Positions 11,930 to 36,074 of a stretch of 64,000 nt of DNA are shown here, piece by piece. A program made the translations under genes and the position numbers. The DNA is taken from NCBI RefSeq assembly GCF_964204645.1, contig NC_134036.1, positions 11,201,859 through 11,265,858 of the forward strand, written 5' to 3'. The notes under the pieces were generated by a model. That model was not told where the DNA came from, did no database searches, and saw only the letters and a list, made by a program, of their open reading frames with translations. The stretch is from Tubulanus polymorphus. Its lineage: Eukaryota; Animalia; Nemertea. Each line of letters opens with the position of its first letter. Within the stretch, counting starts at the first letter, position 1.

Positions 11930-12334
11930 AATAAAAAGCAAGGTGGCAAAAATTATATCTAAATTTTCTGTAGTTGCTTTCTCAAGCGTTCTGTTATCCA
12001 TTTACATTTAATGGGAATCACTCTGAAATTCGAGCATAATTTTCAAAGCGTGCTATGAATGCTAAGAACCAATAAACGGCTATCTTTTATGATCGCATGT
12101 CAAGCCCCCATGGTGATTGGTTAATGTTGTTGATAAAGTACCACACATTCATCGGTCGATGGCTGATCGATACCGTCACTTGAAAAACCTGTTTTCGTTG
12201 TTGCCGATGCGTTTGGAAAATACAGTAGAAACTTACGTAGGTAAATATGGCTTGATTTCAGGGGAATTTTGATGGGCATTACTGCGGTGAATTTGTTTAT
12301 TATACTTTGAAAACATGCTTTCAGAGAATTCAGA

Positions 12335-16809: not shown

Positions 16810-17669
16810 ATTTCCCGATCGTAAACTTGGTGAAATATAAAAGGTCAAAATACTACCGAGTTCCCTGATTGTCAACTCGATGAAATTTAAAAAGTCAAAA
16901 CACTACCGAGTTCCCTGATTGTCAACTCGGTGAAATATTTACAGTAATCGAAATGCTACCGAGTTAACTGATTCTCATCTTAGTGAAATATTCACAACAG
17001 TCTCAACGCTACTGAGTTCCCTGACTGTCAACTCGGTGAAATAATTACAGCAATCAAAATGCTAGCGAGTTCCCGGAGACCAGTTACATAGTCATGGCTT
17101 AGACTTAAGACCAGTCTAAGACCAACTTAGTTCTATAGCCAATCTAACAACTTAAGACCAGTCTTAAGATTTAAGACCACTTTTTGACTTAAGTCACGAC
17201 TGTGCAACTGACCCCTGATTGTCAACTCGGTGAAATATTTACAGCAGTCTCAACGCTACCGAGTTCCCTGATTATCAACTCGGTGAAATATTTACAGCAC
17301 TCTCAACACGTTACCGATTTCCCTGATTCTCAAACTCGGTGAAATATTTACAAGTCTCAACACTACCGACTTCATTGATCCTCAACTCAGTGAAATATTA
17401 ACAGTTTTCTATTGACATGCTACTGAGTTCCCTGGCTGTCAAATCAGTGAAATATTTACAACAGTCTCAACACTACGAGTATATTGATTCTCAACTCAGT
17501 GAAATATTGACAGTTTTCTATTGACATGCTACCGAGTTCCCTGGCTGTCAAATCAGTGAAATATTTACAACAAGTCTCAACCCTCCCGAGTATATTGATT
17601 CTCAACTCAGTGAAATATTGACAGTTCAAATGACACCGAGTTCCCTGGCTGTCAAATCAATGAAATATT
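16810..17669. repeat. ~60-bp satellite array, left part
   Basis: Repeated CTACCGAGTTCCCTGATTGTCAACTCGGTGAAATATTTACAG-like units. Confidence 0.9.
17076..17214. mobile_element. Small MITE inserted in the satellite
   Basis: ~27-bp imperfect TIRs GAGACCAGTTACATAGTCATGGCTTA / TAAGTCACGACTGTGCAACTGACCCC; internal TTAAGACCA repeats; related sequences at ~58105-58204 and ~60008-60050. Confidence 0.7.
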
Positions 17670-18174
17670 AGTAATAGGGATAATGGGCTTTCAAGCCAAA
17701 GGTCGAACGGTCGAGCTCGTAAAAAATGAAAAACATAAAAATAATAACAATTTCTACTTGAATTACTCGCGAAACTCAAAAATAATAACAATTTCTACTT
17801 GAATTAGGAGTGAAACTCATAAAATGAAAAATAAATTCGAGCGTGTGAGAATTTATTTTTCATTTTTATGAGTTTCGCGAGTAATTCAAGTAGAAATTGT
17901 TATTATTTTTATGTTTTTCATTTTTACTCACCCGCCCGTTCAACCTTTAGCTTGAAAGCCCATTATCCCTATTACTCTTAAAATATTCATATATATATAT
18001 GAATAACATTTAAATCATTGAACTTCTAAAATCAATTTTAATAAAAAATATAGTATTAAAATGGAAGCAAATAAGTACTACTGCCCAACATGTAATATCA
18101 ATATAGATAAATCCCAAAAAGCAAGACACAATAAAACTATAACACATTTAGAGAATAAATTGAAACTAGAATAT
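17670..18174 (+). repeat. Left TIR (505 bp) with terminal hairpin 17670-17976
   Basis: Reverse complement of 35143-35606 except for the hairpin core, a 41-nt duplication (17761-17801) and a few small differences. Confidence 0.95.
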
Positions 18175-18312
18175 TTACAGTTATATTCAGAACAGTTAAC
18201 AAAGGGAAAGAAATTTATTGAATTATGGAATAATGATCCAAATAATGAACAATACGTTGAGGAATTTATTATCAAGGAATCGAAAGAACTTATCAAAAGC
18301 AGCGAGGAATGA
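18061..18312 (+). CDS. Chimeric 83-aa ORF: first 38 aa of PolB (zinc finger) fused to an HNH-paralog C-terminal tail
   Basis: MEANK...LKLEY is identical to the PolB N-terminus; LQLYSEQLTKGKKFIELWN resembles the end of the HNH gene. Confidence 0.6.
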   Translation: MEANKYYCPTCNINIDKSQKARHNKTITHLENKLKLEYLQLYSEQLTKGKKFIELWNNDPNNEQYVEEFIIKESKELIKSSEE

Positions 18313-18391
18313 AAAAGGATGACGTTGGTCGAAGAAATGGAAGAGGATTCTAAAATTATTAACCAATTTAGTAAAAAAATACGTATAATAA

Positions 18392-18997
18392 ATGGAACCA
18401 GAACAACCACAAATTATCAATATTACAAATAACACTGGCGTTATAAACATATACTACAAGAAGTGTTCTAAATGTGAATTAGATAAATTAGCTTTAACAG
18501 AATTTAGTAAGCGTAAGATTAGCAAAGATGGTTTTCAATATTGCTGTAAAACTTGCATTAAACTATATACTAAACAATATCGAGAAGATAATAGAGAATC
18601 TTATAATGATTATATGACAGAATATATGAGAGAAAGATATCAAACAGATCTTAATTTTAGATTGAAACAATGCTTAAGGACTAGATTAACACAATTATTC
18701 AACAAAGAAACACATTCAGAAACACTATCTAATTTATTGGGTTGTTCAGATGAATTTCTCAAATCATGGATAATATATCAATTCGACGATAAAATGAATA
18801 TAGATAATTATGGTGAATACTTTCATATTGATCATGTGTTGCCGATTTCTAAATTTGACATGAATGATGAATACAATAAAAAACTTATTTGGAATTGGAA
18901 GAATCTAAGACCTTTAGAAAAGAAGGAAAACATTATTAAATCCAATAAACTAGATTTACAGTTATATTTAGATCAACTGGATAAAGACATTTGTTGA
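18392..18997 (+). CDS. HNH endonuclease of the type common in large DNA viruses; C-terminus probably frameshifted
   Basis: KCSKC..F..KDG...CKTC zinc finger; YGEYFHIDHVLPIS..WNWKNLRPLEKKENIIKSNK. Confidence 0.8.
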   Translation: MEPEQPQIINITNNTGVINIYYKKCSKCELDKLALTEFSKRKISKDGFQYCCKTCIKLYTKQYREDNRESYNDYMTEYMRERYQTDLNFRLKQCLRTRLTQLFNKETHSETLSNLLGCSDEFLKSWIIYQFDDKMNIDNYGEYFHIDHVLPISKFDMNDEYNKKLIWNWKNLRPLEKKENIIKSNKLDLQLYLDQLDKDIC

Positions 18998-19403
18998 ATT
19001 ATGGAATAGTATTTCACAGAATCAACCGCATTCTGAGGTTTTGATCAGTGGTTAGAAAGCTGGCAATTCTATTTGAGCTTTGTATGTATATAATACATAG
19101 CTTTTGCTTACTACTAAAACATATGTTGTCAAATATATCTTGTTTTCAATTCTAAAGAATTAATTAACTTCATCATAAAGAACATCTGTGCAGAAGTAAT
19201 TAGTTTGGTCGAACGTGCGCCACGTCGGCAGTTAGAAATCAACTTTCACATACATAGTACGTATTGGATATTCTCTCTCAAAACACAGTTTACAGTTCTA
19301 AATCTAAATGTAAGTACCGTTTTTTGTAGTTATTATGAAGTAGGGAAACCTTTAAACATATTTAAGTACAGTAATTCATTTTCACGATATCTTTTAGATT
19401 AAA

Positions 19404-19871
19404 ATGGAACACAAAGATCAACCAGAAATTCTAAACCAACCAACGGATGAGGAACGATTGATACTGGATAGTGAAACTCAGGAATCAATAGAAATGGAGG
19501 ATGAAACTCTCGTAATTGACGAACAAACTTCACAAACATTACAAGAACATTTGGACTATCATCAAGAAATGGTGAAAATTCTGAGTGATGTAATACATAA
19601 TAAACAATTACCGCGCGAACTACAATTACCAAAATTACCAGCAACGCGACTTAAATTGCTGTTGGGACTCAAAGAATCGAAAACTAAGAAAAAGAACATA
19701 GATATCAGTGCCGGTTTTGAAAGAAAACTGAGAAGAGTAGGTAGATTAATAAAATATGAAAAATTCAAAATATTAGGATTAGCATTTAGTGAAGTAGTCA
19801 GATATTTACCAGAAATTGAAGAAATGATTGGAAACAATCCAGTAATTAAAGAATTCTGGACAAAATTATAA
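19404..19871 (+). CDS. Polinton hypothetical protein (acidic N-terminus, basic C-terminus)
   Basis: 155-aa ORF with TAAAATG start; no motif recognised. Confidence 0.6.
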   Translation: MEHKDQPEILNQPTDEERLILDSETQESIEMEDETLVIDEQTSQTLQEHLDYHQEMVKILSDVIHNKQLPRELQLPKLPATRLKLLLGLKESKTKKKNIDISAGFERKLRRVGRLIKYEKFKILGLAFSEVVRYLPEIEEMIGNNPVIKEFWTKL

Positions 19872-19959
19872 ATTATAATACTGAAGGTCTTTGTAATATA
19901 GATATCAAAAATGTAATCTCGATTGTATATATCTGTTTTAATATTGTATTGATTACTGT

Positions 19960-20302
19960 TAACTGTGTATTGCGCAATAACCGGTCCGATTGGACCGCAT
20001 TTCTATTGTTCTCCATTGTTCTACTATTGATCGTTGTTAATGGCGGCGGTTGTTCTGTATTGATTGTTTACTGTTAACTAAGTGTTGCGCAATAACCGGT
20101 CCGATTGGACCGCATTTCTATTGTTCTCCATTGTTCTACTATTGATCGTTGTTGACTGAAACAGCTGCTCAATATTGATTGGTTACAGTTCTATGTTTGA
20201 ATGTTGTAGTTTACAGAATAAAAATATAACTGTGTATTGCGCAATAACCGGTCCGATTGGACCGCTTTTCTATTGTTCTCCATTGTTCTATTATCGATCG
20301 TT
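19960..20302. repeat. Three ~75-bp direct repeats with a palindromic core
   Basis: TTGCGCAATAACCGGTCCGATTGGACCGC...TTCTATTGTTCTCCATTGTTCTA x3. Confidence 0.9.
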
Positions 20303-20713
20303 AAAATTTACATAATAAATATATGTGTTTATGAAATAAGATTTCCACCAGTCGTTTCTTTGAATTTATTTTCAGTTTTCGGATTTATTATCGAGAATCC
20401 GAAATGACTTATCTGGACAGTTATAGTTACTGCTCCTAATAGATAGACAATAGTAGTGAGATAATCTAAATCCTAATTTAAATAAAATATAATAAAAAAA
20501 CAATAACTTCAACTAGCTAGTCAATTCTATTATATTTTCAATATTTTCTTTTCAAAAAGAGAATACTTTATATTTTGAATAGATCCGAATAGAAATTCTT
20601 TAAATTCAAATAGCTAGTATCAGTAGTCAATACTAGAGTTCTTTAACTTTAACTATCTAGTATCATTTGAAGAATACTTATAATACTATTCTTATTAAAT
20701 TTCTCTAATATAA

Positions 20714-21316
20714 ATGTCAAAGAAATCTAATAAGAATAGTATTGATATTGAAAAAACATTAGATGATTTGGGTATAAGTGATAATAAAGATACAGTTGTT
20801 TCTAATTCTATTCAAGTTAATAACAATATAGATTATGAATACTACTTATATTGTAAGCACCATATAGAACTATTGATTGCCGGTGGAAAAACTAATGAGT
20901 TTTTAAATAGAATCATTACTTTTCAAGAATTAGATGCTATGAAACCCGATAAAGTAATAAAATATTTTAAGATTTATGAAGAAGCTCGATTAGCTAGAAT
21001 AAATGATTCTATTTCAGATGGTATTGTCAAATGTTATTCTAAGTTATGTAACCAGTTAATACCAATTGATGATGAAAATAAATTATATAATGATTTGAAA
21101 AATGACTATTTAGTTATGACTGAATTACAAAAATGGGTTGGATATGCTTCATTTCAATTAGGATCGGTTATGACATTAATTTCTACTGGTGTCATAACAT
21201 TTTCGAACATCAAGCCTATGGAATATAAATCAGGTAAGAACGAAACAGATGTACTACAACAAAACATCGAAACAGAAAATGAATCAGAACAAAAATTAAC
21301 TAAAATAAATGAGTGA
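20714..21316 (+). CDS. Polinton hypothetical protein with a hydrophobic segment near the C-terminus
   Basis: 200-aa ORF, TAAATG start. Confidence 0.75.
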   Translation: MSKKSNKNSIDIEKTLDDLGISDNKDTVVSNSIQVNNNIDYEYYLYCKHHIELLIAGGKTNEFLNRIITFQELDAMKPDKVIKYFKIYEEARLARINDSISDGIVKCYSKLCNQLIPIDDENKLYNDLKNDYLVMTELQKWVGYASFQLGSVMTLISTGVITFSNIKPMEYKSGKNETDVLQQNIETENESEQKLTKINE

Positions 21317-21704
21317 TGGAGTTAAGAAAAAGGCTAGATCCGAGAAACAAATTAAATGGGCAAGAGAATTAGGTAAAAGATCTTCAGAATTAAAAAAAGC
21401 TAAGAAAAAGAAATTAACTGATATAAATGAATCACAGAAATTATCTGATGGTGCCGTACAGCACCCACACGGTGGTATTGATTCAAATAATAATCCATCT
21501 AATTCTTCTAATAGTGGAAGAAATAATTACTTATATATTACAATTGGGTTAATCACAATTATTATATTCTCCGGTGTAATATATAAATCAAAATTCAAAT
21601 CTGACGATAAAGATGATCGGAAACTTAGTTATCCGTGTACAGACAATAAACCACCAGAAAATAAATCAAATGAAACTAAATCTAAAATATTATTAATGGA
21701 TTAA
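21309..21704 (+). CDS. Basic single-pass membrane protein
   Basis: Lys/Arg-rich N-terminus; TM segment YLYITIGLITIIIFSGVIY. Confidence 0.75.
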   Translation: MSDGVKKKARSEKQIKWARELGKRSSELKKAKKKKLTDINESQKLSDGAVQHPHGGIDSNNNPSNSSNSGRNNYLYITIGLITIIIFSGVIYKSKFKSDDKDDRKLSYPCTDNKPPENKSNETKSKILLMD

Positions 21705-21707
21705 AAT

Positions 21708-22796
21708 ATGATGAAAAAAGAACAATATTTAAGAGATTTATATTATAACCCAGAAAGTGAAGTATCATTTTCTAACGTTTCAGAATTATGGAATAAAATT
21801 AAATCTGATAATAGCAATATAAAATATAGTGAATTAAAATCATGGTTACAAAATCAACCAACATATCAAATTCATAAAAAGATGGATAAAAAATATTTAA
21901 CAAGAAAAGTAATGGTTTCATATATCGATCAACAATGGCAAGCTGATTTAATTGACATGAAAAACTTAGAAGAATATAACAAAGGATATTTTTGGATACT
22001 AAATGTTATAGATATATTCAGTAGATACGCATGGAGTATCCCGATTAAAAATAAAACTGGTATAGAAGTTACAAATTCTTTTAAATCTATATTTAAAGAA
22101 GCTATTCCATATAAGATACAATTTGATGAAGGTAAGGAATTTTATAACAAACATTTTAAAAAACTATTAACTGATAACGATGTAGAATATTTTTCAACAC
22201 ATTCAGATAAAAAAGCATCTGTTATAGAAAGATTTAATAAAACATTGAAAACTAGAATGTGGAAATATTTTACTGCTAATGAAACATATAAATATATCGA
22301 TGTGTTAGATGATTTAGTTAAAGGTTATAATAATTCTAAACATAGTTCTATAAATATGAAACCTATACAAGCTAGAAAAGAAGAAAATTCAGAAATAGTT
22401 TGGAATAATTTATATGGAGCATTTGTTACACATGATTTTGGAGAACCTAAATTTAAAATAGGACAACATGTTAGAATTTCTAAATATCGAAAAACATTTT
22501 ATAAAGGTTATACCCCTAATTTTACAGAAGAAATATTTAAAATTAAAAAGATAATATTAACTAAACCATTTGTTTATATATTGTTTGATTTAAAAGATGA
22601 AGAAATATTAGGTTATTTTTATGAACAAGAATTATCATTAGTACCAAATCCAGATGAAATAGAATACAAAATAGAAAAAGTATTGAAAACAAAAACTCTT
22701 AAAGGAAAAAAGTATTCTTTGGTGAAATATAAAGGATACGATGATAAATTTAATGAATGGATTTTATCTAGTAAAATTAAAAGAATAAATGAATAA
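21708..22796 (+). CDS. Retroviral-type (rve) integrase with C-terminal chromodomain
   Basis: QWQADLID, IDIFSRYAW, QFDEGKEF, VIERFNKTLK (DDE); YKIEKVL..LVKYKGY..FNEW chromodomain. Confidence 0.96.
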   Translation: MMKKEQYLRDLYYNPESEVSFSNVSELWNKIKSDNSNIKYSELKSWLQNQPTYQIHKKMDKKYLTRKVMVSYIDQQWQADLIDMKNLEEYNKGYFWILNVIDIFSRYAWSIPIKNKTGIEVTNSFKSIFKEAIPYKIQFDEGKEFYNKHFKKLLTDNDVEYFSTHSDKKASVIERFNKTLKTRMWKYFTANETYKYIDVLDDLVKGYNNSKHSSINMKPIQARKEENSEIVWNNLYGAFVTHDFGEPKFKIGQHVRISKYRKTFYKGYTPNFTEEIFKIKKIILTKPFVYILFDLKDEEILGYFYEQELSLVPNPDEIEYKIEKVLKTKTLKGKKYSLVKYKGYDDKFNEWILSSKIKRINE

Positions 22797-23400
22797 AGAT
22801 TTATTTATATTTGAACCACATAATATGTTAGTTACTGGAGTTACAAATTGTGGTAAAACACATTTCATATTAGACTTGTTAGAAACTATTTATAAAAATC
22901 ATTTTGATAATATAATATTATTCTGTCCTACATATGAAATGAATAAAACATATAATAGAGATATAGTTAAGATAAAAAAGTTTATTATATTAGACCCTAA
23001 AACAGTAAAAGAAAATTTAGATAATTGTATAAAAATTGCATTAGATATTTATAAAGGATCAAATACATTATTTATTATAGATGATTGCGCAAATTTACAT
23101 GATTCTAAAATTAGAGAAAGTGAGTTATGTTATTTAGCTTTCTCTGGTAGACATTTTGGGATAACAACATGGGTTTTAAATCAGAAATATAATTCAATTG
23201 TGAAAGATTTTAGAGAGAATATAAGATTTCTAGTTTTATTCTACAACAAAGATAGAAAATCTATGCAACAATCATTGGAAGAAAATCAAATTATACCTAC
23301 TGAATTACATGATGAATATATGAATAAATTAAAAAATAATAAAGGTTCCAAATTACTTATGAGATTACAATTTCCATATGAATATAAATTTATAAAATAA
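22789..23400 (+). CDS. A32/FtsK-like genome-packaging ATPase
   Basis: Walker A GVTNCGKT, Walker B LFIIDD, SGRH arginine-finger motif. Confidence 0.92.
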   Translation: MNKDLFIFEPHNMLVTGVTNCGKTHFILDLLETIYKNHFDNIILFCPTYEMNKTYNRDIVKIKKFIILDPKTVKENLDNCIKIALDIYKGSNTLFIIDDCANLHDSKIRESELCYLAFSGRHFGITTWVLNQKYNSIVKDFRENIRFLVLFYNKDRKSMQQSLEENQIIPTELHDEYMNKLKNNKGSKLLMRLQFPYEYKFIK

Positions 23401-23534
23401 CTATTTGTATACCTATGTATTAGATACCCTAATACCCCATTAGATACCCTAATACCTGATACCCTATTAGATACCTTAAATACTTAAAACCCCCTTTTTT
23501 ATTTACTACTATTTTATACAATTTTCAACCTTTA

Positions 23535-24440
23535 TTATTCGAGTAATATATAATTACTTTCTGAATCACTTTCACTATCAGACCTTAACAACATATTTAA
23601 ATGCTCTACCGAATTTACATCAACATCTTTATAATTTTGTTTCACCTTTTTCGCCTTTTTTACCACACCACCAATAGTTGTTTCGTTATTACGCTTATTC
23701 ATCCTTTCTATTATATCATCAATAGTTTCTTCTTTATGTTTCATAGAATCTTTAATATCAATATCTGTAACTATATCACCATGTGGGCGTATGGCACCAT
23801 TTTCATTATCATCTTTATTAGTGTTTGCTCCTAATATTTCATTTACAGTGTTTGATCCTAATATTTCATTAGCATCGGTTAAATCTAATTCATCGTTATT
23901 AGGTGTTGCTAATAATAAATCTTTATATAATTCTTTACCATTTACTTTTTTATTTGAAACAAATTTTGTAACATATCTAAATGGGTGTTCTATAAATTCT
24001 TTTTTACCAACACGTTCTATAACATTAGTAATATGTGAATTTGTATTCATATGTTTATTCCAATTTGATGGAGCGTTTGAAAATTCACCATTACAATAAC
24101 CACAATAATTTCTATTTTCACTAACATCTAATATTATTGAATTAATATATGTAGAAGGTATTACGTTATTAGATGTAGTAGGTATTACAGATGTAGTAGT
24201 AGGTATTACAGATGTAGTAGTAGGTATTATAGATGTAGTAGGTATTACATTATTATCAATTACACTATTATTAACAACACCACTTTTATTATTATCGATT
24301 TCTATCAGTTTAGTTTTATAATTTTAAAAAATAGGATCAAATATCAAAGCTATATTACAAGGTATTACATAATATAAACCATCATTATTTTCATGTGTAT
24401 CGATGTATGGAATATGTTTATATACTTTACCTCCTTCCAT
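23535..24440 (-). pseudogene. ~300-aa C2H2 zinc-finger protein with one in-frame TAA (24324-24326)
   Basis: TAAATG start at 24440 is in frame with ORF 23535-24050; includes IPTTTSV repeats and CGYC..NWNKHMNTNSH. Confidence 0.8.
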
Positions 24441-24472
24441 TTATTATATATATTTTTATTAAAGTTAAAATT

Positions 24473-25720
24473 CTAATACATAACACTATCTAATTGTGAA
24501 TTTACAATATTTAATTGCGCGTCAGATATAATATAAATGTGCATTTTAAAATTTTTGATTCCTTTTTTCTTTGTCATGAATAATTGTATTCCATCTTTTG
24601 TATTTTGTAGTTTTTTTCCAGAACCATGTAATAAGTTATCTTCAGTTGTTCTAAAATCTACCCATAATGCAAATTTATTACCGGTATAATAGTCAATTTG
24701 ATTTATGTTACAATTTTCAAATGATTTTACTTTTTCATTCATAAAATGTTTTTTAATTTCTGGCCATTGATCAATCATTCTCATTCCTTGACAAAATATT
24801 TTATTTGCTATTCCTTCGATAGTTATTTCTACTTTTGTTATTTCAGGATTATAATAATTATCAACATTTATTGCGCCATTAGTATACGTTCCAATAGTAA
24901 AAAATATTAATATACCTTTAATAGATCTTCTAGGGAAGTTAATATTCTCATTTATTATTTCATCATTTGCATTAATAGTTACAGTTTTAAATTTATCAAT
25001 ATAATCATATAATAATGAAAATCCTTGATTGTATTGAGTTTGAATTATACTTGAAATATTTTCATCAGTTACTGTATCATATTCTAAACATATATTTGAT
25101 AATTTATAACTCATATCTTTATTAACGCTAGATATTACAATTTCATTAACAGGAGCAAATGTTATCTCAAATATAATATCTTCTTGAATTGCGTATTTAT
25201 ATAAAGGTGCATTATTATTTATCAATTCAAAGTCTAATGGAATTTTATATTTGCTTCCATATATACTTTTTATCAATTTATCTACATCATTTGTTAATAT
25301 TGCGCTATTAGCTTCTGATCTTAATTTATTTTGGTTTTCTGATTGGATTCCTTGAAATATCATATTATTTCTATTTTCTTTAGTTAACCATAAATCTTTA
25401 TAATGCATAAATAAATTATAATCATCTAATGAGAAAACTGTTTCTGGACCAATCTTTATTGTTAATTTTTTAATCAAATATCTTCCAACATTATCAACAA
25501 CATAATTATTATTATTACCGATTACTTTTATATCAGCTGATAAATAAATACTGTTTGGAACATAAAAAGTATTTTGTGTTAATCTCGGAATTCTAACGTA
25601 TAAAGTTTCATCGGGATTAATATTTGAAGGGTTATGAGTAATTATATGATGTGATCTTTCTGCTTTAATAGCATTAGATATTCTATGATTCTTAGAAGGA
25701 TTGATATAACTCCCACTCAT
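24473..25720 (-). CDS. Major capsid protein (predicted double jelly-roll), 415 aa
   Basis: Size, beta-rich pattern (LYVRIPRL, LTIKIG, YKLSNICLEYD, FALWVDFR, MHIYIISDA) and Polinton context. Confidence 0.8.
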   Translation of the reverse strand: MSGSYINPSKNHRISNAIKAERSHHIITHNPSNINPDETLYVRIPRLTQNTFYVPNSIYLSADIKVIGNNNNYVVDNVGRYLIKKLTIKIGPETVFSLDDYNLFMHYKDLWLTKENRNNMIFQGIQSENQNKLRSEANSAILTNDVDKLIKSIYGSKYKIPLDFELINNNAPLYKYAIQEDIIFEITFAPVNEIVISSVNKDMSYKLSNICLEYDTVTDENISSIIQTQYNQGFSLLYDYIDKFKTVTINANDEIINENINFPRRSIKGILIFFTIGTYTNGAINVDNYYNPEITKVEITIEGIANKIFCQGMRMIDQWPEIKKHFMNEKVKSFENCNINQIDYYTGNKFALWVDFRTTEDNLLHGSGKKLQNTKDGIQLFMTKKKGIKNFKMHIYIISDAQLNIVNSQLDSVMY

Positions 25721-25761
25721 TTATTTAACAAAAAAATTAATTATTTATTTTTGATCATGGT

Positions 25762-27336
25762 TTACTTGATATTTTTTGATATCATATTTACTAAACCAAA
25801 AATAATAGCACTTACAACTGTAATTAAAAATAAAATAATATGTTCAGCAGCAAAGTTAATAATGTTTCCTGCAGATTTCAATATAAAACCAACAATTGAT
25901 GCAATAACTCCTGGCAATGCTGCAGCAGATTTCTTTGATAGTTCCCATAAATATTTTGCTAATTTCTTTAAACCATCTTTAACTTTATCTTGTATAGAAT
26001 TATTACCTGGGGGTTTATCTGGTTTATTAGGAGTGGGAGTAGGAGTAGATTTTAAAGCATTTGATATTGATAAACCAATTGTTGTAAATACCATAGTTAC
26101 AGATGTTAGAATTGAAAGAATTGTTATTCCTTCTAATTTAAATAATAATCTTATTCTGTCTTTTAATGATATTTCAGAATTTGGTTTTATTAGATATCTT
26201 TTAAAAACATCTTTTAATCTTTTAAAATTATTACCAAATTCTTTTAATAATATATCTCTTTCACCTTTTTGTACTTCTAAATTATCTTTTAAATTATCAA
26301 TTTCTTTTTCTAAACCTAATTCTTTTTGCCTATATTCTATTTCATCAATTACTTGATGGTCTAAATCAGACTTTAATTATTCTATTTCTTTATTTTTATC
26401 AGTTAATTCTTTTTCTAAAATGTTAATTTTAATATCTCTTTTACTTTTTTCATGCGCAATTTTATCAGCTGATTCTTGCATACCTTTAATTTCTCTACGT
26501 GTTTGTTCAGGAAATGCTTCTAATTCATCATCAGTTAAATCAAGTAATCCTTTTTCTAGTAAAGATTGTATTCGATTTATTCCAATACTATTCATCTCTT
26601 CGTCAAATGAATCTCTTAATCTATCAATTTGTTTTTCTAATACTAATTGTAATTGACTTGAATCATTATCAATTTGTTGAGTGTCTCTTCTCGATGTTTC
26701 AGGTGTTGAAGATCTTATTCGATCTCTATGATCTTCCATTTCTGTTTCTAAATTATTATCGATTATTTTAAATAAGTTATCAATTCTTTCACTAAATACT
26801 CTTATATTATTATTTCTTTCTTCTTGTGTAACATCAGTTATTTCATTACTATTACTTATTCTCTTAATTCTATCTGGTTCTAACTTAAGCAAAGTTGATT
26901 CTGCTAATATTTTACTTAGTTTTGTACTTTGATTAGTGATATTAATATAATAATCATCTTTCAAATGATAATAATATTCACCATCTAAAAACTTTAAATC
27001 TTGTACTAAAAGTCTGGCGCCTCTGTAATTTATATTATATCCAGATCTTTCAAATACATCTTGAAACTTATATATAAATCCAATATTTTCTAAATCTTCC
27101 TTTTTTAAACCTTGATTTTCATTTTCAGTATTTATTCTCGATCTAGTTCTTCTATCAAATTCATCTGTTGATGGGGCTTTAGAACCACTATCTGCTAAAT
27201 TAGTATTATATCCTGATTCATCATCATTATCAATATTAGTTTCATTAAAATCGGGTTGTGGTTCATCATCAATATATCCTTCATTATTATTTCCCATTTC
27301 TCCCATTTCATAATCTTTTCCACCTTCTACATCCAT
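25762..27336 (-). pseudogene. ~524-aa acidic/coiled-coil protein with C-terminal membrane segments, one in-frame TAA (26377-26379)
   Basis: ORFs 26377-27336 and 25762-26094 are in the same frame and the 94 intervening codons are open (LKDRIRLLFKLEGITILSILTSV). Confidence 0.85.
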
Positions 27337-27352
27337 TTACATAATAAAAAAA

Positions 27353-28657
27353 TTAAAATTTAAAATATAATATTCCTCCGATTACAATTCCTATACAAGT
27401 TATAGCTAATTTAGTATTTTCATGGGATTTATTATCATCATTTAGTTTAATTATATCATGTTGAATATTATCAGTTTTTATATCTTCTGATGTATTGTAA
27501 TCTTTTATTTTAGAATCATTATTTAATTTAATATTATTAGTTTTAGTTTCAGTTGATTGAATATGTTTTTTATTTTTTTCACCTTCCATTAATTTTGGAG
27601 CAGTAATAATCTTTTTATTTATATCATTTAACCCAAATGAATTATTTATTGTTGCAGTTTTAATTAAATTATTATAACCAATTATATTTCCCATCTTTAA
27701 TACTAAATCATTAGAAATAATTAATAGATTAGGGCCTATACAATAATTTAGTCTTACATGAGATTTATCTAAATAATTTTGATATCTTATAATGTTTTCT
27801 GGAATCGATCTATTTTTATCATTATGAATTGAATCTTCAAATAAAACTTTAAACTGTTTCTGCGCATCGAATGAAGTGTTATCATTTCCAATTATTGGGG
27901 ATCTTGTTTCAACTTGAGCGCCTAAAATACATATCAAATAAATTCTAATAGATTGATTTATTCTTTGTATACCTGATTTTGTAAAACCTTCACCATTTTC
28001 TAAAATGAAATTAACCCAACCATTATTATTATCAATTTTATAATTATGATAAGCTGAAATTCTATGCATATAATCAATTCTTTTTATTTCATACTCTTCA
28101 ACACCTTGCAATTTACCATGCGCTCTAAAATCGGAATTAATATTTATATTAAATTCATTACATATTTTATAAAACTTGGATATATTAATATTATTATCCA
28201 ATTCTTTAAAATATTTAGACCCGGGTAAAGGACATTCTAATTCATTTAATATTATTCTGATTTGAAAATATGTGTGAAATCTAAATATTGTGTGAATTAA
28301 TTTTAAATCAGAATACTTCAAATTTTTATCTAAGTTATTTAAATGATCATTCCAACTAATTCCACATCCTGTTGTTGCACAATAAACAGCAAAATTTAAT
28401 TGATTCTGCCAATATTTCATATTAGATTTTACTTTATATATATGATATTCATCTCGAGTAAAAGTAACTTCATATGTATTAGATATATTTTCCATTTTAG
28501 AAATAAAAAACTGTGATTCATTAACATAAATTTCTAAATTAGTTAATGAATTTAAAACTATATTTTTTTATGTAATATTTTTCTTAAAATCTATTGCTGG
28601 AATATTATATTTAATTGATTTATTATATCGGAAAGCTTTTGGAAAACTATCTACCAT
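27353..28657 (-). pseudogene. ~434-aa probable virion protein with C-terminal TM anchor, one in-frame TAA (28568-28570)
   Basis: TAAATG start at 28657 (MVDSFPKAFRYN) is in frame with ORF 27353-28495; WQNQLNFAVYCATTGCGIS motif; C-terminal TM. Confidence 0.8.
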
Positions 28658-28673
28658 TTATATAATTAAAAAA

Positions 28674-29017
28674 TTAATAATTTATTAATTCTTTTAATAA
28701 TTTATCTTGTTCTTCAACTGTTATATGACCATTTAAACTTATTATATAATCTAAACACTTGAACTTAATCCTAATACGCCAATTGATATAGCTAAAGGTG
28801 TTAATGGACTGAATATTGCTAGAAATGTTATTACAGAACTAATTGTAACCGAACCACTTATAATCAAATAATATATAATTTTACTTTTTAAATATTTTTT
28901 CTTTTTTATCTTTAAGTCACTTTCAAATTCTAATATTTGTTTTTCTAAATATGTTTTTAATTTAGTTTTATTTATATCATGAGGAATAATATCAATACTA
29001 TCAACTTTATCTTCCAT
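28674..29017 (-). pseudogene. Small membrane protein, frameshifted near 28755
   Basis: Coiled coil plus two hydrophobic helices; a plausible C-terminus (LDYIISLNGHITVEEQDKLLKELINY*) continues in another frame. Confidence 0.65.
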
Positions 29018-29036
29018 TTATTTAGAATAAAAATTA

Positions 29037-29459
29037 CTAATTAGTAAATTTATAAGCAACAAATATAACAATAACTGTTCCACCTAAAATCCATTATATT
29101 TCATATTTCTGTTGTTCTTTACTTGGGGTATAATAATCTGATAATTTAGGTTTGTATAGATGTAATTTTTCTTTATTGGTTACTGTGTTATATAAACTCA
29201 TTGCATCATCAACTGATTGAAAATCTCTATGTGAAATCTTCTGATCATATAATTCTTTATTGATGTAATCCATATAGTTTTGTCTCTTTTCTCTATATTC
29301 TTCTGCAGCTTTATTGTATTTCTCTAACGCTAAATTATGTCTTCTTTGTTCTCCTAATGAACTATTTTTATCAATATGTTTAAATAAATAACCACCACCA
29401 GTAAATGCTAAAGCGTTAACAATTGCCGATCCTATAATAGTTATAATTGCAGAAGCCAT
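29037..29459 (-). pseudogene. ~140-aa membrane protein with one in-frame TAA (29094-29096) before its C-terminal TM helix
   Basis: N-terminal hydrophobic helix, EQRRHNLALE; the frame continues past the stop as WILGGTVIVIFVAYKFTN*. Confidence 0.8.
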
Positions 29460-29486
29460 TTATTTAGCAAAAAAATTACACACTTC

Positions 29487-29708
29487 TTATATGGGAGGAA
29501 TATATTTTTGTTTTTCCAAGTAATCAATAGTTAAATTAGATAAAGTAACTGCTAATGTTAACTTTAAAATATCATTTATATCAAATCTATCAACATTAAC
29601 ACTTCCCATTTTGAATACTTTTTTTAATACCATTGAATAACCAACAGTTCCAACTGATAGTAATGCGCCATTATATAATCCAGTTATTATCCACTTATTA
29701 TCACTCAT
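29487..29708 (-). CDS. 73-aa small hydrophobic protein
   Basis: Two hydrophobic/amphipathic helices; TAAATG start. Confidence 0.75.
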   Translation of the reverse strand: MSDNKWIITGLYNGALLSVGTVGYSMVLKKVFKMGSVNVDRFDINDILKLTLAVTLSNLTIDYLEKQKYIPPI

Positions 29709-30065
29709 TTATTTATCAAAAAAATTACTATCATCAAAATATTTAGTTAACTTAGTGATTATTAATTCAACATTTATTTTATTACTAGTTTCATTTGTAT
29801 ATATTTCAATTAGTATTTTTTTAATATCATCGATGATAAAATCTTCATCTAATTCATAAAATCTTAAAGATTCTCTAATTAAATTAGTAATCTTTTCTAC
29901 ATTTAAAGTTTCTTTATCTATTGTTGTTTCATACTCAAATGTTGTTTCATTAGAAAATGTGATATTTTTAATATGTGTTATTACATCATTCATGTTAAAT
30001 TTCATTTCTTTCTCACGTTTAAAATCAAATCCAAAACATATACTCGGTCCAACAGTTATATTCAT
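29709..30065 (-). CDS. Polinton hypothetical protein, 118 aa
   Basis: TAAATG start; its stop abuts the next ATG. Confidence 0.7.
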   Translation of the reverse strand: MNITVGPSICFGFDFKREKEMKFNMNDVITHIKNITFSNETTFEYETTIDKETLNVEKITNLIRESLRFYELDEDFIIDDIKKILIEIYTNETSNKINVELIITKLTKYFDDSNFFDK

Positions 30066-30081
30066 TTATATAGGTGAAAAA

Positions 30082-30837
30082 TTACTCTTTACATCTTATA
30101 ACTAATTCATAAATTACAGGAAAGTTATTCAAATCAATTAAATATCCATTGTGATTTCTTATTTCTAACTTAAAATTATTAAATTTTGGAATACAAGGTT
30201 TGAAATCACATTCTGTTAAATTATAATTTATTTGAGTTCCAAATTGTTTAACATTTTTTAGCGGTAAAATATTTAGTATACTAGAACTACAAATTGTTTC
30301 TTTAGTTGCTTCGAAAGTTTTTGTAGGCTCGATTAAATTGCAATAAATATAAATGTGTGTAAAAGGTATTATATTTGAGCTGCCTTCTGCGTTTCCAGTA
30401 ACTGTAAGAGGTTTAATTTCTAACATTTTAGCCAGTGGTTTGTTTACCATAAATTTATGTTGTTCATTAGAAATCTTTATTCTTATTTTATTAGTACTAT
30501 CAATTTTATTAAATTTAATTTCAAATACAGAAGTACCCCCGATTTTCAACCGAGCTCTTCTATTAATTTCCTGCGCTAATGATTCTAAATTATATAATCC
30601 TGGTTTTAAAAATATATGAAACCATTTATCTTTATTTCTCATATAAATCATAAACCCTCTATGTTCAAAAGTTTTATCCGATATATTATAAAAAGAATTA
30701 CATAAACTTATATTTACTAATTTTAAATCTACACAATTCTTAAATTCTCTATCTAATTGTACTAATAAATTATGAGATTTATAATTTGTAAGTTTTCTAG
30801 AATCTACAAATATTCTGTATTCTTTTAATTCTACCAT
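30082..30837 (-). CDS. Minor capsid (penton-like, single jelly-roll) protein
   Basis: IFVDSR, SFYNIS, LKPGLYN, IYIYCNLI, ILNILPL, FKLEIRN..GYLIDLN..VIYEL pattern typical of Polinton minor capsids. Confidence 0.8.
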   Translation of the reverse strand: MVELKEYRIFVDSRKLTNYKSHNLLVQLDREFKNCVDLKLVNISLCNSFYNISDKTFEHRGFMIYMRNKDKWFHIFLKPGLYNLESLAQEINRRARLKIGGTSVFEIKFNKIDSTNKIRIKISNEQHKFMVNKPLAKMLEIKPLTVTGNAEGSSNIIPFTHIYIYCNLIEPTKTFEATKETICSSSILNILPLKNVKQFGTQINYNLTECDFKPCIPKFNNFKLEIRNHNGYLIDLNNFPVIYELVIRCKE

Positions 30838-30854
30838 TTATTTTACATATTTTC

Positions 30855-31196
30855 TTATTCGAAATCTATTTCATGGTGCCCTTTTTCATTCTTACCTTTG
30901 TATACAAAATAGAAATCTCCAGAACATAATTCTTCTAGATCTTCACTTGATAATCTATGAAATCTATCTGGTAAATAAGTTCTGAATTTATATTTATTTC
31001 CTTTTAATCCTTCATATTCTAAATGAATTACTAATTTATCTCCATATTTATTAGTAATTGTTTCAATGTTATTAATTAAATATTTCTTGTGAATTGTTAA
31101 CTCAGTTAGTTTTTTAAATTTATAATCTACAGATTTGACGCTTGAAGTATCTTTAATTCTATCTAAGAATTCACTGTGTACTTGTTTACTCTCCAT
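30855..31196 (-). CDS. 113-aa protein downstream of polB, possibly ssDNA-binding/OB-fold
   Basis: KKLTEL..KKY.I..TNKYG..V..TYLPDRF..FVYKG beta pattern and acidic tail; function is inference. Confidence 0.55.
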   Translation of the reverse strand: MESKQVHSEFLDRIKDTSSVKSVDYKFKKLTELTIHKKYLINNIETITNKYGDKLVIHLEYEGLKGNKYKFRTYLPDRFHRLSSEDLEELCSGDFYFVYKGKNEKGHHEIDFE

Positions 31197-31224
31197 TTAT
31201 TATACAAATTTTTATTGAAATTGA

Positions 31225-34200
31225 TTAACACGCTAGAATCCTTTTCATAATCTCATTTTCTTTTGTTTCTTCTCTTTTGAATTTTATATATTCATCTAAA
31301 TTGCAACCATAGGCGACTGTGTGGATTCCATCACCTAAAATATATCTTTTATCATCAAATGGGTTTAGACTTATCTTCTCTATCTCTTCAATATACATTT
31401 CATGATCTTCAGATCTTAAACATTTCATGTTATGTTTTCTAACTTCTTCATTAAATATACAATTGATGTAATCTTTGAAATGAATATTCTTTTCAACAAC
31501 GCTTTTGGTTATTCCTTTTAACTTTTTAGCTTCATGTTCTTTAGTTTTATATGAATACATTTTAGATCTAATACCTATGAACTCTATCATTTCTTCACCA
31601 CCTAATTCATCCTTAAACTTCCCAGGAACTTTTTTATTATCATTGGTAAACAATTCATGATTTTTTGGATAATTACTGAAATCAAAATGATGTTTTAATG
31701 TTTTTAAATCATCAGTTATGTTATCAGTTTTTATCTTTAATATGTAACTGTCAGTATCAAAATATAATATTTCTATGTGTTTTTCTCCAAAATGGGGTTG
31801 TAATATGTTATAGTAAAATTTATACATTAATAACTTTGATAATTCTAAAACTGATGCACCAACATAGATTGGTTTATTGAATTTCATACTTGTTCTTCTC
31901 ATTTTAACTGCTGCTAAATTTTCATCAAATATTCTGTTACCTATGAATTTCGGATACGATTGTAAATGTCTAATTCTTTTACCATTACTGACTAACTCAA
32001 TATCACTTCTATTTCTTATGTTTTCACATGTTTTTCCATAAAACGCATTATTCATTAACTTGAAGAAATCTTTTTCGAAATCGGTTTTAGCTTCAGTTCT
32101 CTGTGTAGTATTAAAATCTATATATTTTTCTAACCACTTAGATTGATTAAATGAAATATATCTATGTACTTTTTTTAGAATCATTCCTTGATTCAAATAA
32201 AACTTCAACATTCTATAATGCACAACGTAATTATATTTATCTTCTTGAGTTACCATTAACTTTTCAGTATGAATATGATTATCAGGTTTAATTCTTTTTT
32301 GATAATTTGATAATTCTTCATGTTTAACAGTTTTATGTTCGGGACAATATGCTAGATTTCTAGATTTGAATTTAATATTTTCAGGGTATTCTAAATCTAC
32401 AACAAAGAAGTAACCAGTATCTGAATCATCTGCAATATCTAGAATTCTTTTCTTCCAATCAAATTTATCAATTTGTAAAACTTCAGTTATTTCAAACATC
32501 CCATAAGGTTGTGGTTCCATCATTACCCAACCATAAAGATTATTTGCATCTATGTATAATGATTTATATCCAGGATTATCATTTACATTGAAATATCTAT
32601 CACCCAATACACCTGAAACACCTCCTCTTATAGATTTTTCAAATAATAGTAATTGATCTATATTTGTTAACAAATCCATTTTTATATCTGTAAATTTTAA
32701 TCCACAATCCCATGTTAATCCTGGTGATGAATAACAATGACAAGGATCAATATTGAAATATTTTAGGTTTACATCTCTAAACCTTTCGAATATATCGGTT
32801 AATAATAATACATCTGATTTTAAATATAAATCTACTAATTGCCCGTGATTTTCTATTTTGAAATGATTCCAAATATTCAATGTTCTATTATAGACTTCAT
32901 CTTTAACATATTCATTTTTTAATTCATCATAGAATTGTTCTTTCAATAATTCAGTTATTTTAAAATCATTATGATTTTTATAGAAAGAATATGGAATCGC
33001 TCCTTTAAATCTCATTAATTGAAAATCATCATTATTTGGGTAGTGTTGTTTTAATATCTTTAATTCATCATCAACTAATGATTTTGATAAGTTATCTAAT
33101 GAACTATTTAAAAATCTATATGAATCTATAAATCTTAGACACCCAAATTGGAATGATATATAATTCTCAGATGTTTTAGCTAACATTCTAAATTTATAAG
33201 TTGGTATTTTATCTTTTGATCTATTTGAATTTAATATTTCTATTTCATTATTGATTTCTTCTATTTTATAACATAGCTGTTTGATAAATAAATGTGCATC
33301 ATATCCTGATAGATTATGAAATATAACTGGTACAAAGTTAATTTTCTTAGCTTGTAAGTTACAATTCTCATGTGCAGCGCCTCTAAACTTTCTATTCAAA
33401 TGATCATGGTCTCTTACCTTTTTATCAGATGAATAGAATACTTGATTACAATAATAACATTTATCTGCAAACTCAAATTCTTCTTTATCTTCTTCTGTCA
33501 TAATTATTTCTTTATTTTCATTTAACTTTTCATTAAATTTTATTTCATATTCAATTAATAAGTCACAAAAATGATTAATAACATTTTCATTTCTATAATT
33601 ATAATATTCACTTTCAATTAGTTCTGGATAATCAGATTTAATATATAACCCGAAAGCTGCAGCTGATTGATGAATCTTTTTAATAGTATTTGTTTTTGGT
33701 GGTTCATCTGAATAATCACTTTCATTAGAATTTAATTTCTTTCTTTTATAATATATATCTTTTCTATCTTTATCTGTTAATTCTTTATTTAATGATTCAA
33801 AATCTCCATATATTACAAATGGTACTTTATTTTTGTAATGATATTTTTTGAATTCTAATATTTTATCTTTTTCATTTGGTAAAACTAATTTACAATAATC
33901 ATGATTATCACATAGTTGTTTATGATTTAATAATGTACTTTCATTACTGAATCTATGTAAACATTTTCTACATAGATATATTTTATGGTGATCATTTTCT
34001 GATTTGAAAAATAAATCGATTTGTTTAATCCACATGTAATGATTTTCATAATATAGTATATCTATAACATTATTTGAATCATAATCTTTTGATAGGTATA
34101 AAGGTTCTAATGTATAATGTTTTATGTTGTTACCTTTTGTATTTGGTAATTTGATTAAATCAAATACATTTATCTTTAAATTATTATCTCTTTCTATTTT

Positions 34201-35256
34201 TGGAATATTTTTAATTCTAACAGGATACTTATCTATCTTATAATTATTTTCAAAGTGTTTATAATGAGTTAATCTAAAACTATGTTGTTTATAATCTTCA
34301 ACTGGGTGTAAACAACTTATTATAGCCCATATAAAACATTTTTTATCAAAATTTTGTATATTTATTACTGCTTTTGTTGTAAATGGTAATTTAATATAAC
34401 TTGTTCCATTTATACTATCATCTTTATAATATGATAAATTATTTTCATCAATTGGTTTTGATTTAGTTAACTTATTATATTTTGTGTTATAAACATGTAA
34501 AGTTATAAATATTATCTCATCAAATATTAAACCAGATCCTTCAAAATATTTCTCTTCTATTTTAGTTTTTACTTCATTATAACATTTATTTAATTTATCA
34601 TCTATATGTTGTTTAGATATAATATGTTGTGAATGAGAATTTATATTATATATTGGTTTATCTTCAGATTTTATAAACTTTACTTTAACTGATATACTAA
34701 TTTTAGGATATTCAACATCTGTAATTATTTTTATTATTTCTTTCATATTTTCTAAATGTTTTTTATTTTCTTCTAATGTTTTTCCTTTATGAAATTTAAA
34801 CTCGATAGCTGCTGGACCAATATCACTTTTAAATGCTTCGGTTATTTCTATATCTTTTTTATTATCTAATGAATTAATATAATTTCTTACATCTTCCATG
34901 TATGGTCTTTTATTGTTTAATTTATTTTTTATTCTTTTAATTGTCTTCTGTTTCTTATCGTTATCATTATCAAAATAATCTTCACCTAAAATATCATTAT
35001 TCTTATTTCTAATATGACTTATAGATTTTAAATGTTCTTTATAATATCTTTTATCACTGAATGATTGATTACATGTATCACATTTGTATGTTTCTTTTTC
35101 ATTCTTTAATTCTTCTAATTTAGTTTCTAATATATTATCTTTATATTCTAGTTTCAATTTATTCTCTAAATGTGTTATAGTTTTATTGTGTCTTGCTTTT
35201 TGGGATTTATCTATATTGATATTACATGTTGGGCAGTAGTACTTATTTGCTTCCAT
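31225..35256 (-). CDS. polB: Protein-primed family B DNA polymerase, 1343 aa, intact
   Basis: Exo I YGDFES, Exo II FHNLSGYD, Exo III YLKSDV, motif A DANNLYG, motif B KLMNNAFYGK, motif C YFDTDS; N-terminal C2H2 fingers; EndoVII-like insert CYYC..VRDHDH..GAAHENCN. Confidence 0.97.
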   Translation of the reverse strand: MEANKYYCPTCNINIDKSQKARHNKTITHLENKLKLEYKDNILETKLEELKNEKETYKCDTCNQSFSDKRYYKEHLKSISHIRNKNNDILGEDYFDNDNDKKQKTIKRIKNKLNNKRPYMEDVRNYINSLDNKKDIEITEAFKSDIGPAAIEFKFHKGKTLEENKKHLENMKEIIKIITDVEYPKISISVKVKFIKSEDKPIYNINSHSQHIISKQHIDDKLNKCYNEVKTKIEEKYFEGSGLIFDEIIFITLHVYNTKYNKLTKSKPIDENNLSYYKDDSINGTSYIKLPFTTKAVINIQNFDKKCFIWAIISCLHPVEDYKQHSFRLTHYKHFENNYKIDKYPVRIKNIPKIERDNNLKINVFDLIKLPNTKGNNIKHYTLEPLYLSKDYDSNNVIDILYYENHYMWIKQIDLFFKSENDHHKIYLCRKCLHRFSNESTLLNHKQLCDNHDYCKLVLPNEKDKILEFKKYHYKNKVPFVIYGDFESLNKELTDKDRKDIYYKRKKLNSNESDYSDEPPKTNTIKKIHQSAAAFGLYIKSDYPELIESEYYNYRNENVINHFCDLLIEYEIKFNEKLNENKEIIMTEEDKEEFEFADKCYYCNQVFYSSDKKVRDHDHLNRKFRGAAHENCNLQAKKINFVPVIFHNLSGYDAHLFIKQLCYKIEEINNEIEILNSNRSKDKIPTYKFRMLAKTSENYISFQFGCLRFIDSYRFLNSSLDNLSKSLVDDELKILKQHYPNNDDFQLMRFKGAIPYSFYKNHNDFKITELLKEQFYDELKNEYVKDEVYNRTLNIWNHFKIENHGQLVDLYLKSDVLLLTDIFERFRDVNLKYFNIDPCHCYSSPGLTWDCGLKFTDIKMDLLTNIDQLLLFEKSIRGGVSGVLGDRYFNVNDNPGYKSLYIDANNLYGWVMMEPQPYGMFEITEVLQIDKFDWKKRILDIADDSDTGYFFVVDLEYPENIKFKSRNLAYCPEHKTVKHEELSNYQKRIKPDNHIHTEKLMVTQEDKYNYVVHYRMLKFYLNQGMILKKVHRYISFNQSKWLEKYIDFNTTQRTEAKTDFEKDFFKLMNNAFYGKTCENIRNRSDIELVSNGKRIRHLQSYPKFIGNRIFDENLAAVKMRRTSMKFNKPIYVGASVLELSKLLMYKFYYNILQPHFGEKHIEILYFDTDSYILKIKTDNITDDLKTLKHHFDFSNYPKNHELFTNDNKKVPGKFKDELGGEEMIEFIGIRSKMYSYKTKEHEAKKLKGITKSVVEKNIHFKDYINCIFNEEVRKHNMKCLRSEDHEMYIEEIEKISLNPFDDKRYILGDGIHTVAYGCNLDEYIKFKREETKENEIMKRILAC

Positions 35257-35606
35257 TTTAATACTATATTTTTTATTAAAAGTGATTTTAGAAGTTCAAT
35301 GATTTAAATGTTATTCATATATATATGAATATTTTAAGAGTAATAGGGATAATGGGCTTTCAAGCTAAAGGTTGAACGGGCGGGTGAGTAAAAAAATGAA
35401 AAACATAAAAATAATAACAATTTCTACTTGAATTAGGAGTGAAACTCATAAAATGAAAAATAAATTCGAGCGTGTGAGAATTTATTTTTCATTTTTATGA
35501 GTTTCGCGAGTAATTCAAGTAGAAATTGTTATTATTTTTATGTTTTTCATTTTTTACGAGCTCGACCGTTCGACCTTTGGCTTGAAAGCCCATTATCCCT
35601 ATTACT
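35143..35606 (-). repeat. Right TIR (464 bp) with terminal hairpin 35339-35606
   Basis: Inverted copy of the left end, containing the polB start; AGTAATAGGGATAATGGGC...GCCCATTATCCCTATTACT palindrome. Confidence 0.95.
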
Positions 35607-36020
35607 AATATTTACAAGTCTCAACCCTCCCGAGTATATTGATTCTCAACTCAGTGAAATATTGACAGTTCTAATGACACCGAGTTCCCTGGCTGTCAAA
35701 TCAGTGAAATATTTACAACAGTCTCAACTCTCCCGAGTATATTGATTCTCAACTGAGTGAAATATTGACAGTTCAAATGCTACCAAGTTCCCTGACTGTC
35801 AACTCCGTGAAATATTGACAGTTCTAATGACACCGAGTTCCCTGGCTGTCAAATCAGTGAAATATTTACAACAGTCTCAACTCTCCCGAGTATATTGATT
35901 CTCAACTGAGTGAAATATTGACAGTTCAAATGCTACCAAGTTCCCTGACTGTCAACTCCGTGAAATATTTACAGTCCAAATGTGCTCAAGTTCTTTAATT
36001 CTCAATGAAATATTTACAGC
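35607..36020. repeat. ~60-bp satellite array, right part
   Basis: Same units as 16810-17669, resuming in register after the TSD. Confidence 0.9.
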
Positions 36021-36074
36021 AGTCCTTATGATACTCAATAAGGCGGAGTTTACGAATATTTTGATGGATATTAC

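Follow-up and report, generated by a model that had tools for sequence, protein, structure and literature searches.

Polintons or Mavericks (Polintoviricetes; the adintoviruses of PMC8502044) are elements of 13 to 25 kb (PMC10748475) that carry genes for a DNA polymerase of family B, an rve integrase, an A32 packaging ATPase, a double jelly-roll capsid protein and a penton, and that are bounded by terminal inverted repeats (TIRs) and a target-site duplication. An element of this type, 17,937 bp long, is integrated at 17670 to 35606 of the window, that is, the whole stretch of 64,000 nucleotides analyzed on contig NC_134036.1 of Tubulanus polymorphus. It shares the Polinton features just listed, the family B polymerase as judged by eye from its motifs and the duplication being 6 bp long, and its polymerase carries an HNH-like insert as does pPolB2 of PMC8502044. 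Unlike the described Polintons, it has no detected protease, possesses long palindromic ends, and bears a promoter-like signal, TAAATG, at gene starts throughout its clade.

Two further systems are close. The mavirus and type 4 endogenous mavirus-like element (EMALE) provirophages of Cafeteria likewise combine an integrase and a polymerase with a capsid of their own, and their gene starts share a motif that matches the late promoter of a large virus; among Cafeteria virophages, only the type carrying the late motif of Cafeteria roenbergensis virus (CroV) was induced by CroV (PMC10945749). The present element resembles them in these genes, in its shared start motif and in a penton fold matching that of mavirus, and the corresponding promoter likeness in its clade is to vaccinia virus as described in print. 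It differs in its animal host, its motif and a capsid whose model is closer to those of PBCV-1 (Paramecium bursaria chlorella virus 1) and iridoviruses, and it is known here from its genes alone. Polinton-like viruses (PLVs) have also been found in entomopoxvirus occlusion bodies, and AHEV_PLV1, AHEV_PLV2, CBEV_PLV1 and Ca_PLV1 are, like our element, small capsid-encoding animal elements, proposed to be parasites of poxviruses (PMC11296320). Compared by description, these PLVs differ from it in being about 12 kb long, in having a protease and no rve integrase, and in being linked to their helper by co-packaging. The available main text of that article contains neither "promoter", "motif" nor "TAAAT", and the word "promoter" is absent from the available portions of PMC8502044, PMC10748475 and PMC11131425. 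A search by title and abstract opening, in which subscription journals are poorly covered, found no literature linking TAAATG promoters to Polintons; one article, PMC4722103, contains TAAATG a single time.

We find that the start signal is real, conserved, clade-specific and unexplained by base composition; that it marks one capsid clade is new here. Judged by sequence likeness, the best supported explanation is that the signal serves as the promoter of a helper virus, and the sequence-only reading of the window, which had proposed a candidate virophage of a pox-like virus, is partly supported.

TAAATG at gene starts of the element and its clade

Genes are designated below by the position of their start codon. 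Our recount agreed with the sequence-only reading: TAAATG marks the start of 14 of 17 genes, TAAAATG that of the polymerase gene (polB) and of 19404, and TAAAATATG that of the integrase gene, the open reading frame (ORF) at 18061, a TIR duplicate of the polB start, being omitted from the count. Two of these starts, 28657 and 24440, seemingly open tiny ORFs; they are true starts, since unbroken orthologues can be aligned from these positions onward without a change of frame, and the ATGs at 28495, 26094 and 24050 are therefore internal. TAAATG stands at 14 of the 19 listed starts and at 43 of the 676 other ATGs in the element (Fisher's test, 1e-12). It heads 12 of 17 ORFs of at least 70 amino acids (aa) compared with 43 of 471 shadow ORFs taken from their first ATG (p 5e-9), and 7 of 35 shadow ORFs of at least 35 aa (p 7e-4 for the comparison with real ORFs); a binomial test against the 8% frequency of an upstream TAA gave p 3e-10.

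The simplest objection is that such a motif arises by chance in sequence of 24% GC, and the element indeed holds 57 copies of TAAATG, 43 of them away from starts. Every start control (other ATGs, shadow ORFs, binomial) goes against this, and the comparison with relatives does so as well. A capsid search returned 148 homologues, and of 186 metagenome stretches the best 80 were used; the clade was first delimited by eye and then tested by a tree of 55 capsids, two loci with partial capsids (L042 and L068) being left outside the tree and assigned by identity, and 13 near-duplicate loci were removed from the locus census. All 14 full-length clade capsid genes start at TAAATG, compared with 0 of 64 outside rows, some of which are fragments. 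For genes that have homologues, the 14 clade loci show the motif at 61 of 73 starts and the 54 more distant loci at 3 of 330. At equal upstream AT content (78%), it is found at 21 of 24 clade genes (loci of at least 30% GC) and at 0 of 83 outside genes (loci of at most 37% GC), so that AT content does not account for the clade-specific signal; it is absent from AT-rich relatives and present in clade loci of 36 to 44% GC. A chance origin of the TAAATG starts is rejected by the start controls, the matched-AT contrast and the clade census, and we give it practically no credence.

The 14 TAAATG rows form one branch of the capsid tree (SH-aLRT 99 in a quick IQ-TREE run; 0.986 in FastTree) that spans 20 to 44% GC, and FastTree places 52 further rows, known as proteins only, on the same branch. 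At -3, 61 of 72 clade genes have T and 278 of 392 outside genes have a purine. A single switch in the clade, from a start context of the host type (purine at -3) to the promoter of a helper, is probable. Two capsid proteins on short contigs labelled Bartonella sp. (P0046 and P0283) belong within the TAAATG clade. These contigs are probably DNA of the arthropod vector, and if so, the range of the clade extends to hosts of entomopoxviruses.

Could TAAATG be a signal for translation only, either by stop-restart coupling or as a start context on long shared mRNAs? The genes are tightly packed, with one true stop-start and two starts that overlap the upstream gene by 8 nt, and G at +4 is enriched (44 of 64 clade TAAATG genes). 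As the sequence-only reading had stated, however, the TAA of TAAATG is an upstream stop codon at 29708 only, 1 of the 14 TAAATG genes of the element. The motif also stands on first genes and heads both members of divergent pairs 19 to 30 nt apart, and a conserved core lies 12 to 18 nt upstream of it. Stop codons do contribute farther upstream. The motif said to be shared by seven structural starts is there, with TAATTTTT at exactly -19 in 7 of 7, but its TAA ends the upstream gene at 27336, at 30065 and probably at 28657, and at 29017 it forms a second stop in frame; this part of the motif is therefore partly stop codon. Taken together, we regard a role in translation only as very improbable.

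The upstream core and poxvirus promoters

The 64 clade TAAATG genes share a core at fixed distance: T occupies -12 in 92% of them and -13 in 77% (49 of 64, compared with 39 of 125 background TAAATG), and A occupies -18 in 75%, -17 in 67% and -4 in 84%. A T-run precedes 36 of 64 clade starts and 9 of 125 non-start TAAATG; an A-run, about 9 nt from the initiator, precedes 14 of 64 and 10 of 125 (p 0.01). This core suggests a promoter rather than a start context only. The A-tracts that the sequence-only reading had noticed upstream of 18392, 24440, 30837 (an A-rich core), 31196 and polB are present. Its division of the genes into separate late and intermediate promoter classes is weakened: orthologous capsid and penton genes occur with either an A-run or a T-run core, and we read the two as variants of one graded post-replicative promoter rather than as two stable classes.

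Published descriptions of vaccinia virus, from which its promoters are known here, provide the comparison. Its late promoters place TAAAT, in most cases with a G after it, on the start codon and have, among other Ts, one about 10 nt upstream, and its intermediate promoters have TAAA and an AT-rich core (PMC11980589). The distance between core and initiator is about 6 nt in late promoters (5 to 7 bp, PMC5294985) and 11 to 12 nt in intermediate ones (PMC12722222, PMC12917281). The vaccinia polymerase reads TAAA directly (PMC12917281), slippage at the initiator yields 5' poly(A) leaders (PMC12722222), and TAAATG also stands on an entomopoxvirus gene (PMC3061580). The clade signal resembles these post-replicative promoters in having TAAAT(G) over the start codon, a T-run or A-rich core upstream, and TAAA variants. 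It is similar, not identical: the distance from the end of the run to the initiator is 8 nt for T-runs and about 9 nt for A-runs, a spacing 1 to 3 nt off that of vaccinia; the core is a single graded one; and the carrier is chromosomally integrated and has no RNA polymerase of its own.

Anatomy and genomic setting of the element

The features of the element are as follows (window coordinates).

17670..35606, unstranded: Polinton-like element with 5'-AG...CT-3' ends, lying in a host tandem repeat
17664..17669, +: left copy of the 6-bp target-site duplication (aatatt)
35607..35612, +: right copy of the 6-bp target-site duplication (aatatt)
17670..18174, +: left TIR; its outer 307 nt (17670-17976) form an imperfect palindrome with a 41-nt internal duplication
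35143..35606, -: right TIR; its outer 268 nt (35339-35606) form an imperfect palindrome, the inner part inverted relative to the left end
18061..18312, +: 83-aa ORF that repeats, within the TIR, the polB start and zinc finger; start at TAAAATG
18392..18997, +: HNH-like endonuclease gene; TAAATG start with A-tract
19404..19871, +: 155-aa ORF, no assigned function; TAAAATG start
20714..21316, +: 200-aa conserved core gene, no assigned function, 50 members among the loci; TAAATG start
21309..21704, +: 131-aa ORF with a hydrophobic segment; TAAATG start, 8-nt overlap with the upstream gene
21708..22796, +: rve integrase with chromodomain (Pfam rve 2e-8, Chromo 8.5e-5); TAAAATATG start; frame open
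22789..23400, +: A32-like packaging ATPase (Pfam Pox_A32 1.3e-11); TAAATG start; frame open
23535..24440, -: gene specific to the clade; A-tract before the TAAATG start; frame interrupted by a stop near 24326
24473..25720, -: double jelly-roll major capsid protein, 415 aa (AlphaFold pLDDT 87.9; Foldseek PBCV-1 capsid E 3e-17); TAAATG with T-run; frame open
25762..27336, -: conserved coiled-coil gene, no assigned function; TAAATG with T-run; frame interrupted by a stop near 26379
27353..28657, -: conserved core gene, no assigned function; TAAATG with T-run; frame interrupted by a stop near 28570
28674..29017, -: small hydrophobic-protein gene; TAAATG with T-run; disrupted by a frameshift near 28755
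29037..29459, -: conserved gene, about 140 codons long; TAAATG with T-run; frame interrupted by a stop near 29096
29487..29708, -: conserved 73-aa gene; TAAATG with T-run, its TAA being, at this start alone, an upstream stop
29709..30065, -: 118-aa ORF, no assigned function; TAAATG with T-run
30082..30837, -: penton (minor capsid protein), 251 aa (AlphaFold pLDDT 68.8; Foldseek mavirus penton E 1e-7); TAAATG with A-rich core; frame open
30855..31196, -: 113-aa ORF, possibly a single-stranded DNA-binding protein; TAAATG with A-tract
31225..35256, -: 1343-aa DNA polymerase of family B; zinc fingers at the N terminus, endonuclease VII/HNH-like insert; TAAAATG with A-tract; frame open

The claim that this is a capsid-encoding Polinton is supported by the rve integrase, the packaging ATPase, the double jelly-roll capsid and penton, the TIRs of about 470 to 500 bp and the 6-bp target duplication, which lies in the 5- to 8-bp range of Polintons/Mavericks. 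In Foldseek searches the capsid model matched the PBCV-1 and iridovirus capsids (E about 1e-17) better than that of mavirus (E 3e-11). The polymerase motifs of the 1343-aa ORF were identified by eye, and homologues occur in capsid-linked loci; it has no Pfam or NCBIfam polymerase match, only Endonuclease_7 with an E value of 0.004, below the cut-off. No maturation protease was found in 19 window ORFs, in 36 clade proteins or by searching three core-gene profiles against Protein Data Bank (PDB) sequences, and a remote one may hide among the genes with no assigned function. For the 19404 ORF there was no homologue among the capsid-linked loci compared, and among the same loci the HNH-like family is confined to the clade. 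No relative of the capsid or the polymerase turned up in the viral contigs searched, and none in prokaryote genomes. The best relatives of the HNH-like gene in viral contigs show 30 to 34% identity, and several of them adjoin a short ORF that resembles, by eye, the start of a giant-virus capsid gene. A clade relative (L003:10343-10981) carries a deoxynucleoside kinase gene (Pfam dNK 2e-31) with a T-run TAAATG start, which points weakly to a pox-like helper.

The terminal palindromes fold as DNA with near -115 kcal/mol each. Their inner part and loop stand in opposite orientation at the two ends, with the 41-nt duplication at the switch point of the left end, and some reads skip the hairpin tip. 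The inversion may reflect flip/flop hairpin replication, perhaps using the HNH-like insert of the polymerase, or a one-off template switch. Comparable palindromic ends were absent from 14 related contigs, 2 of which reach short TIRs. All eight window copies of AAAATGAAAAA lie within the palindromes (17723-17924 and 35393-35553; 0.6 expected, the copies not being independent), and this sequence is similar to the vaccinia early promoter type described as A-rich interrupted by TG (PMC11980589). Inside the element, three 115-nt repeats of higher GC content occupy the non-coding gap between 19404 and 20714 (19948-20329).

With 24.5% GC, the element is an island within host DNA of 36 to 40% GC. The surrounding host tandem repeat (16811-17669 and 35607-36035) consists of units of about 50 bp that contain GTGAAATATT, and the duplicated target belongs to the unit. 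Farther out, the flanks hold relics of P, hAT and reverse-transcriptase elements together with a rhodopsin-family receptor gene, which is intronless (12311-13315) and has a broken inverted paralogue near 10483-11348 (window 10483-13315); this content indicates an animal host. Just to the right of the element lie an ORF with a DUF1280 domain and a PHD-like finger (36854-38254, -) and a hAT-type transposase ORF (38972-41179, +).

In DNA reads that a different study obtained from this species, the element has, at 90% likeness, a median depth of 405 compared with 17 for the host flank, about 23-fold. This depth, the chromosomal position and the nuclear entry that integration requires would suit an autonomous nuclear element, in which host RNA polymerase II, perhaps guided by a factor that the element encodes, would employ the AT core with TAAATG as a compact promoter, the pox likeness being convergent or a relic. 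Several conserved genes have no assigned function, relatives that are free of the motif are equally compact in gene spacing, and coral Polintons are expressed in field colonies (PMC11131425). On the other side, the clade swapped the purine that its relatives have at -3 for T, and its coding strands contain 3 to 5 AATAAA per kb, which would be costly under polymerase II, although outside elements are equally undepleted. In addition, no initiator of polymerase II that is joined to a start codon in this manner is known to us. We consider this explanation unlikely.

The proposed helper virus and its consequences

We think it rather likely that the element is transcribed by a helper virus, as is the case for mavirus, and that this helper is poxvirus-like. 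TAAATG and the A/T core would then be a promoter for the helper's cytoplasmic RNA polymerase, and the element would be switched on during infection. It would leave its chromosome, or arrive as a particle, and be transcribed inside the helper's factory; RNA would start within TAAA and acquire by slippage a 5' poly(A) leader that offsets the T at -3. Its own polymerase would copy it, its own capsid, penton and ATPase would package the DNA, and its own integrase would return it to a chromosome.

Several observations weigh against this proposal. No helper virus or pox-type gene appeared in a motif scan of viral contigs or in searches with the HNH-like and kinase homologues; the HNH-like gene led to 12 viral loci of 23 to 47% identity, with TAAATG at 3 of 92 ORF starts and no pox-like context. 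RNA polymerase subunits were not found among the ORFs of this copy or in 36 clade proteins scanned, as the sequence-only reading had said of the element, and the article on coral Polintons, in the portion available, mentions no helper for their transcripts. Measured from TAAAT, the T peak (-12) is 9 nt upstream, a base closer than in vaccinia (10, PMC11980589), and the distance from the end of the A-tract to the initiator is 9 nt instead of 11 to 12 (PMC12722222, PMC12917281). Short distances between divergent genes do not set the clade apart (median 28 nt in it, n=6, compared with 37 nt outside, n=57). The early terminator TTTTTNT occurs 14 times in clade coding strands where 38 are expected, and 28 times in AT-rich outsiders where 29 are expected; since the clade shuns long A/T runs in general (A7 or more, 25 versus 62; T5 runs without the TTTTTNT signal, 43 versus 58), this deficit speaks only faintly for the proposal. 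Depletion of splice donors and of AATAAA does not separate the clade from outsiders. The internal AATAAA, which had been taken as a sign of cytoplasmic transcription, are abundant as claimed, but their number (72) is that expected from codon use (66 +/- 5); all groups, including AT-rich relatives without TAAATG, are at background level, and the motif is therefore neutral as evidence. Because the tree indicates a single gain, the many loci represent one evolutionary event and are not independent. Finally, this copy is decaying, its five broken genes weakening it as an inducible provirophage, as which it had been proposed; the frames of the polymerase, integrase, ATPase, capsid and penton genes are open.

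The motif scan of viral contigs also brought up a different candidate. It returned seven loci, six of them phage-like by eye and without TAAATG enrichment and the seventh a giant virus bin (G001, with Rpb5, topoisomerase II, AEP primase and patatin) that has TAAATG at 9 of the 32 ORF starts seen, one of them with the same T-run layout and spacing as the structural genes of the element. A virophage-like life could depend on a cytoplasmic large DNA virus other than a poxvirus whose late promoter also ends in TAAATG, a possibility that bears on the choice of a poxvirus as well. The spacing offset from vaccinia would fit, and late promoters have been little studied in most giant-virus families (PMC5294985). 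However, one G001 locus (L084, 5 of 14) was chosen by the motif, and the unselected one (L088) has only 4 of 18, a raw count without background. The published late motifs of African swine fever virus-like viruses and CroV are different (TATATA and TCTA; PMC5294985), and TAAAT over the start codon is a feature described for poxviruses (PMC11980589, PMC5294985, PMC3061580). A non-pox helper of this kind appears improbable to us.

Confined to one clade, the start signal is a sequence marker that sorts animal Polintons likely to depend on a helper from the others; it names the kind of helper to seek, and it bears on how animal Polintons are expressed and whether any of them live as virophages. If the proposal is true, the mavirus model of the integrated virophage extends from protists to animals, and poxvirus relatives are predicted in invertebrates; to our knowledge, none are known from the invertebrates concerned. 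Protection of the host by the element is possibly a further consequence. More broadly, and only tentatively, we suggest that this widespread clade of animal Polintons, whose more than 50 variants of the capsid range from marine metagenomes to, probably, arthropods, may consist of integrated virophages of poxvirus-like viruses, which would be silent in chromosomes and switched on by the late RNA polymerase of the helper, and which would mark invertebrates with undiscovered poxvirus relatives and possibly an inherited antiviral defense.

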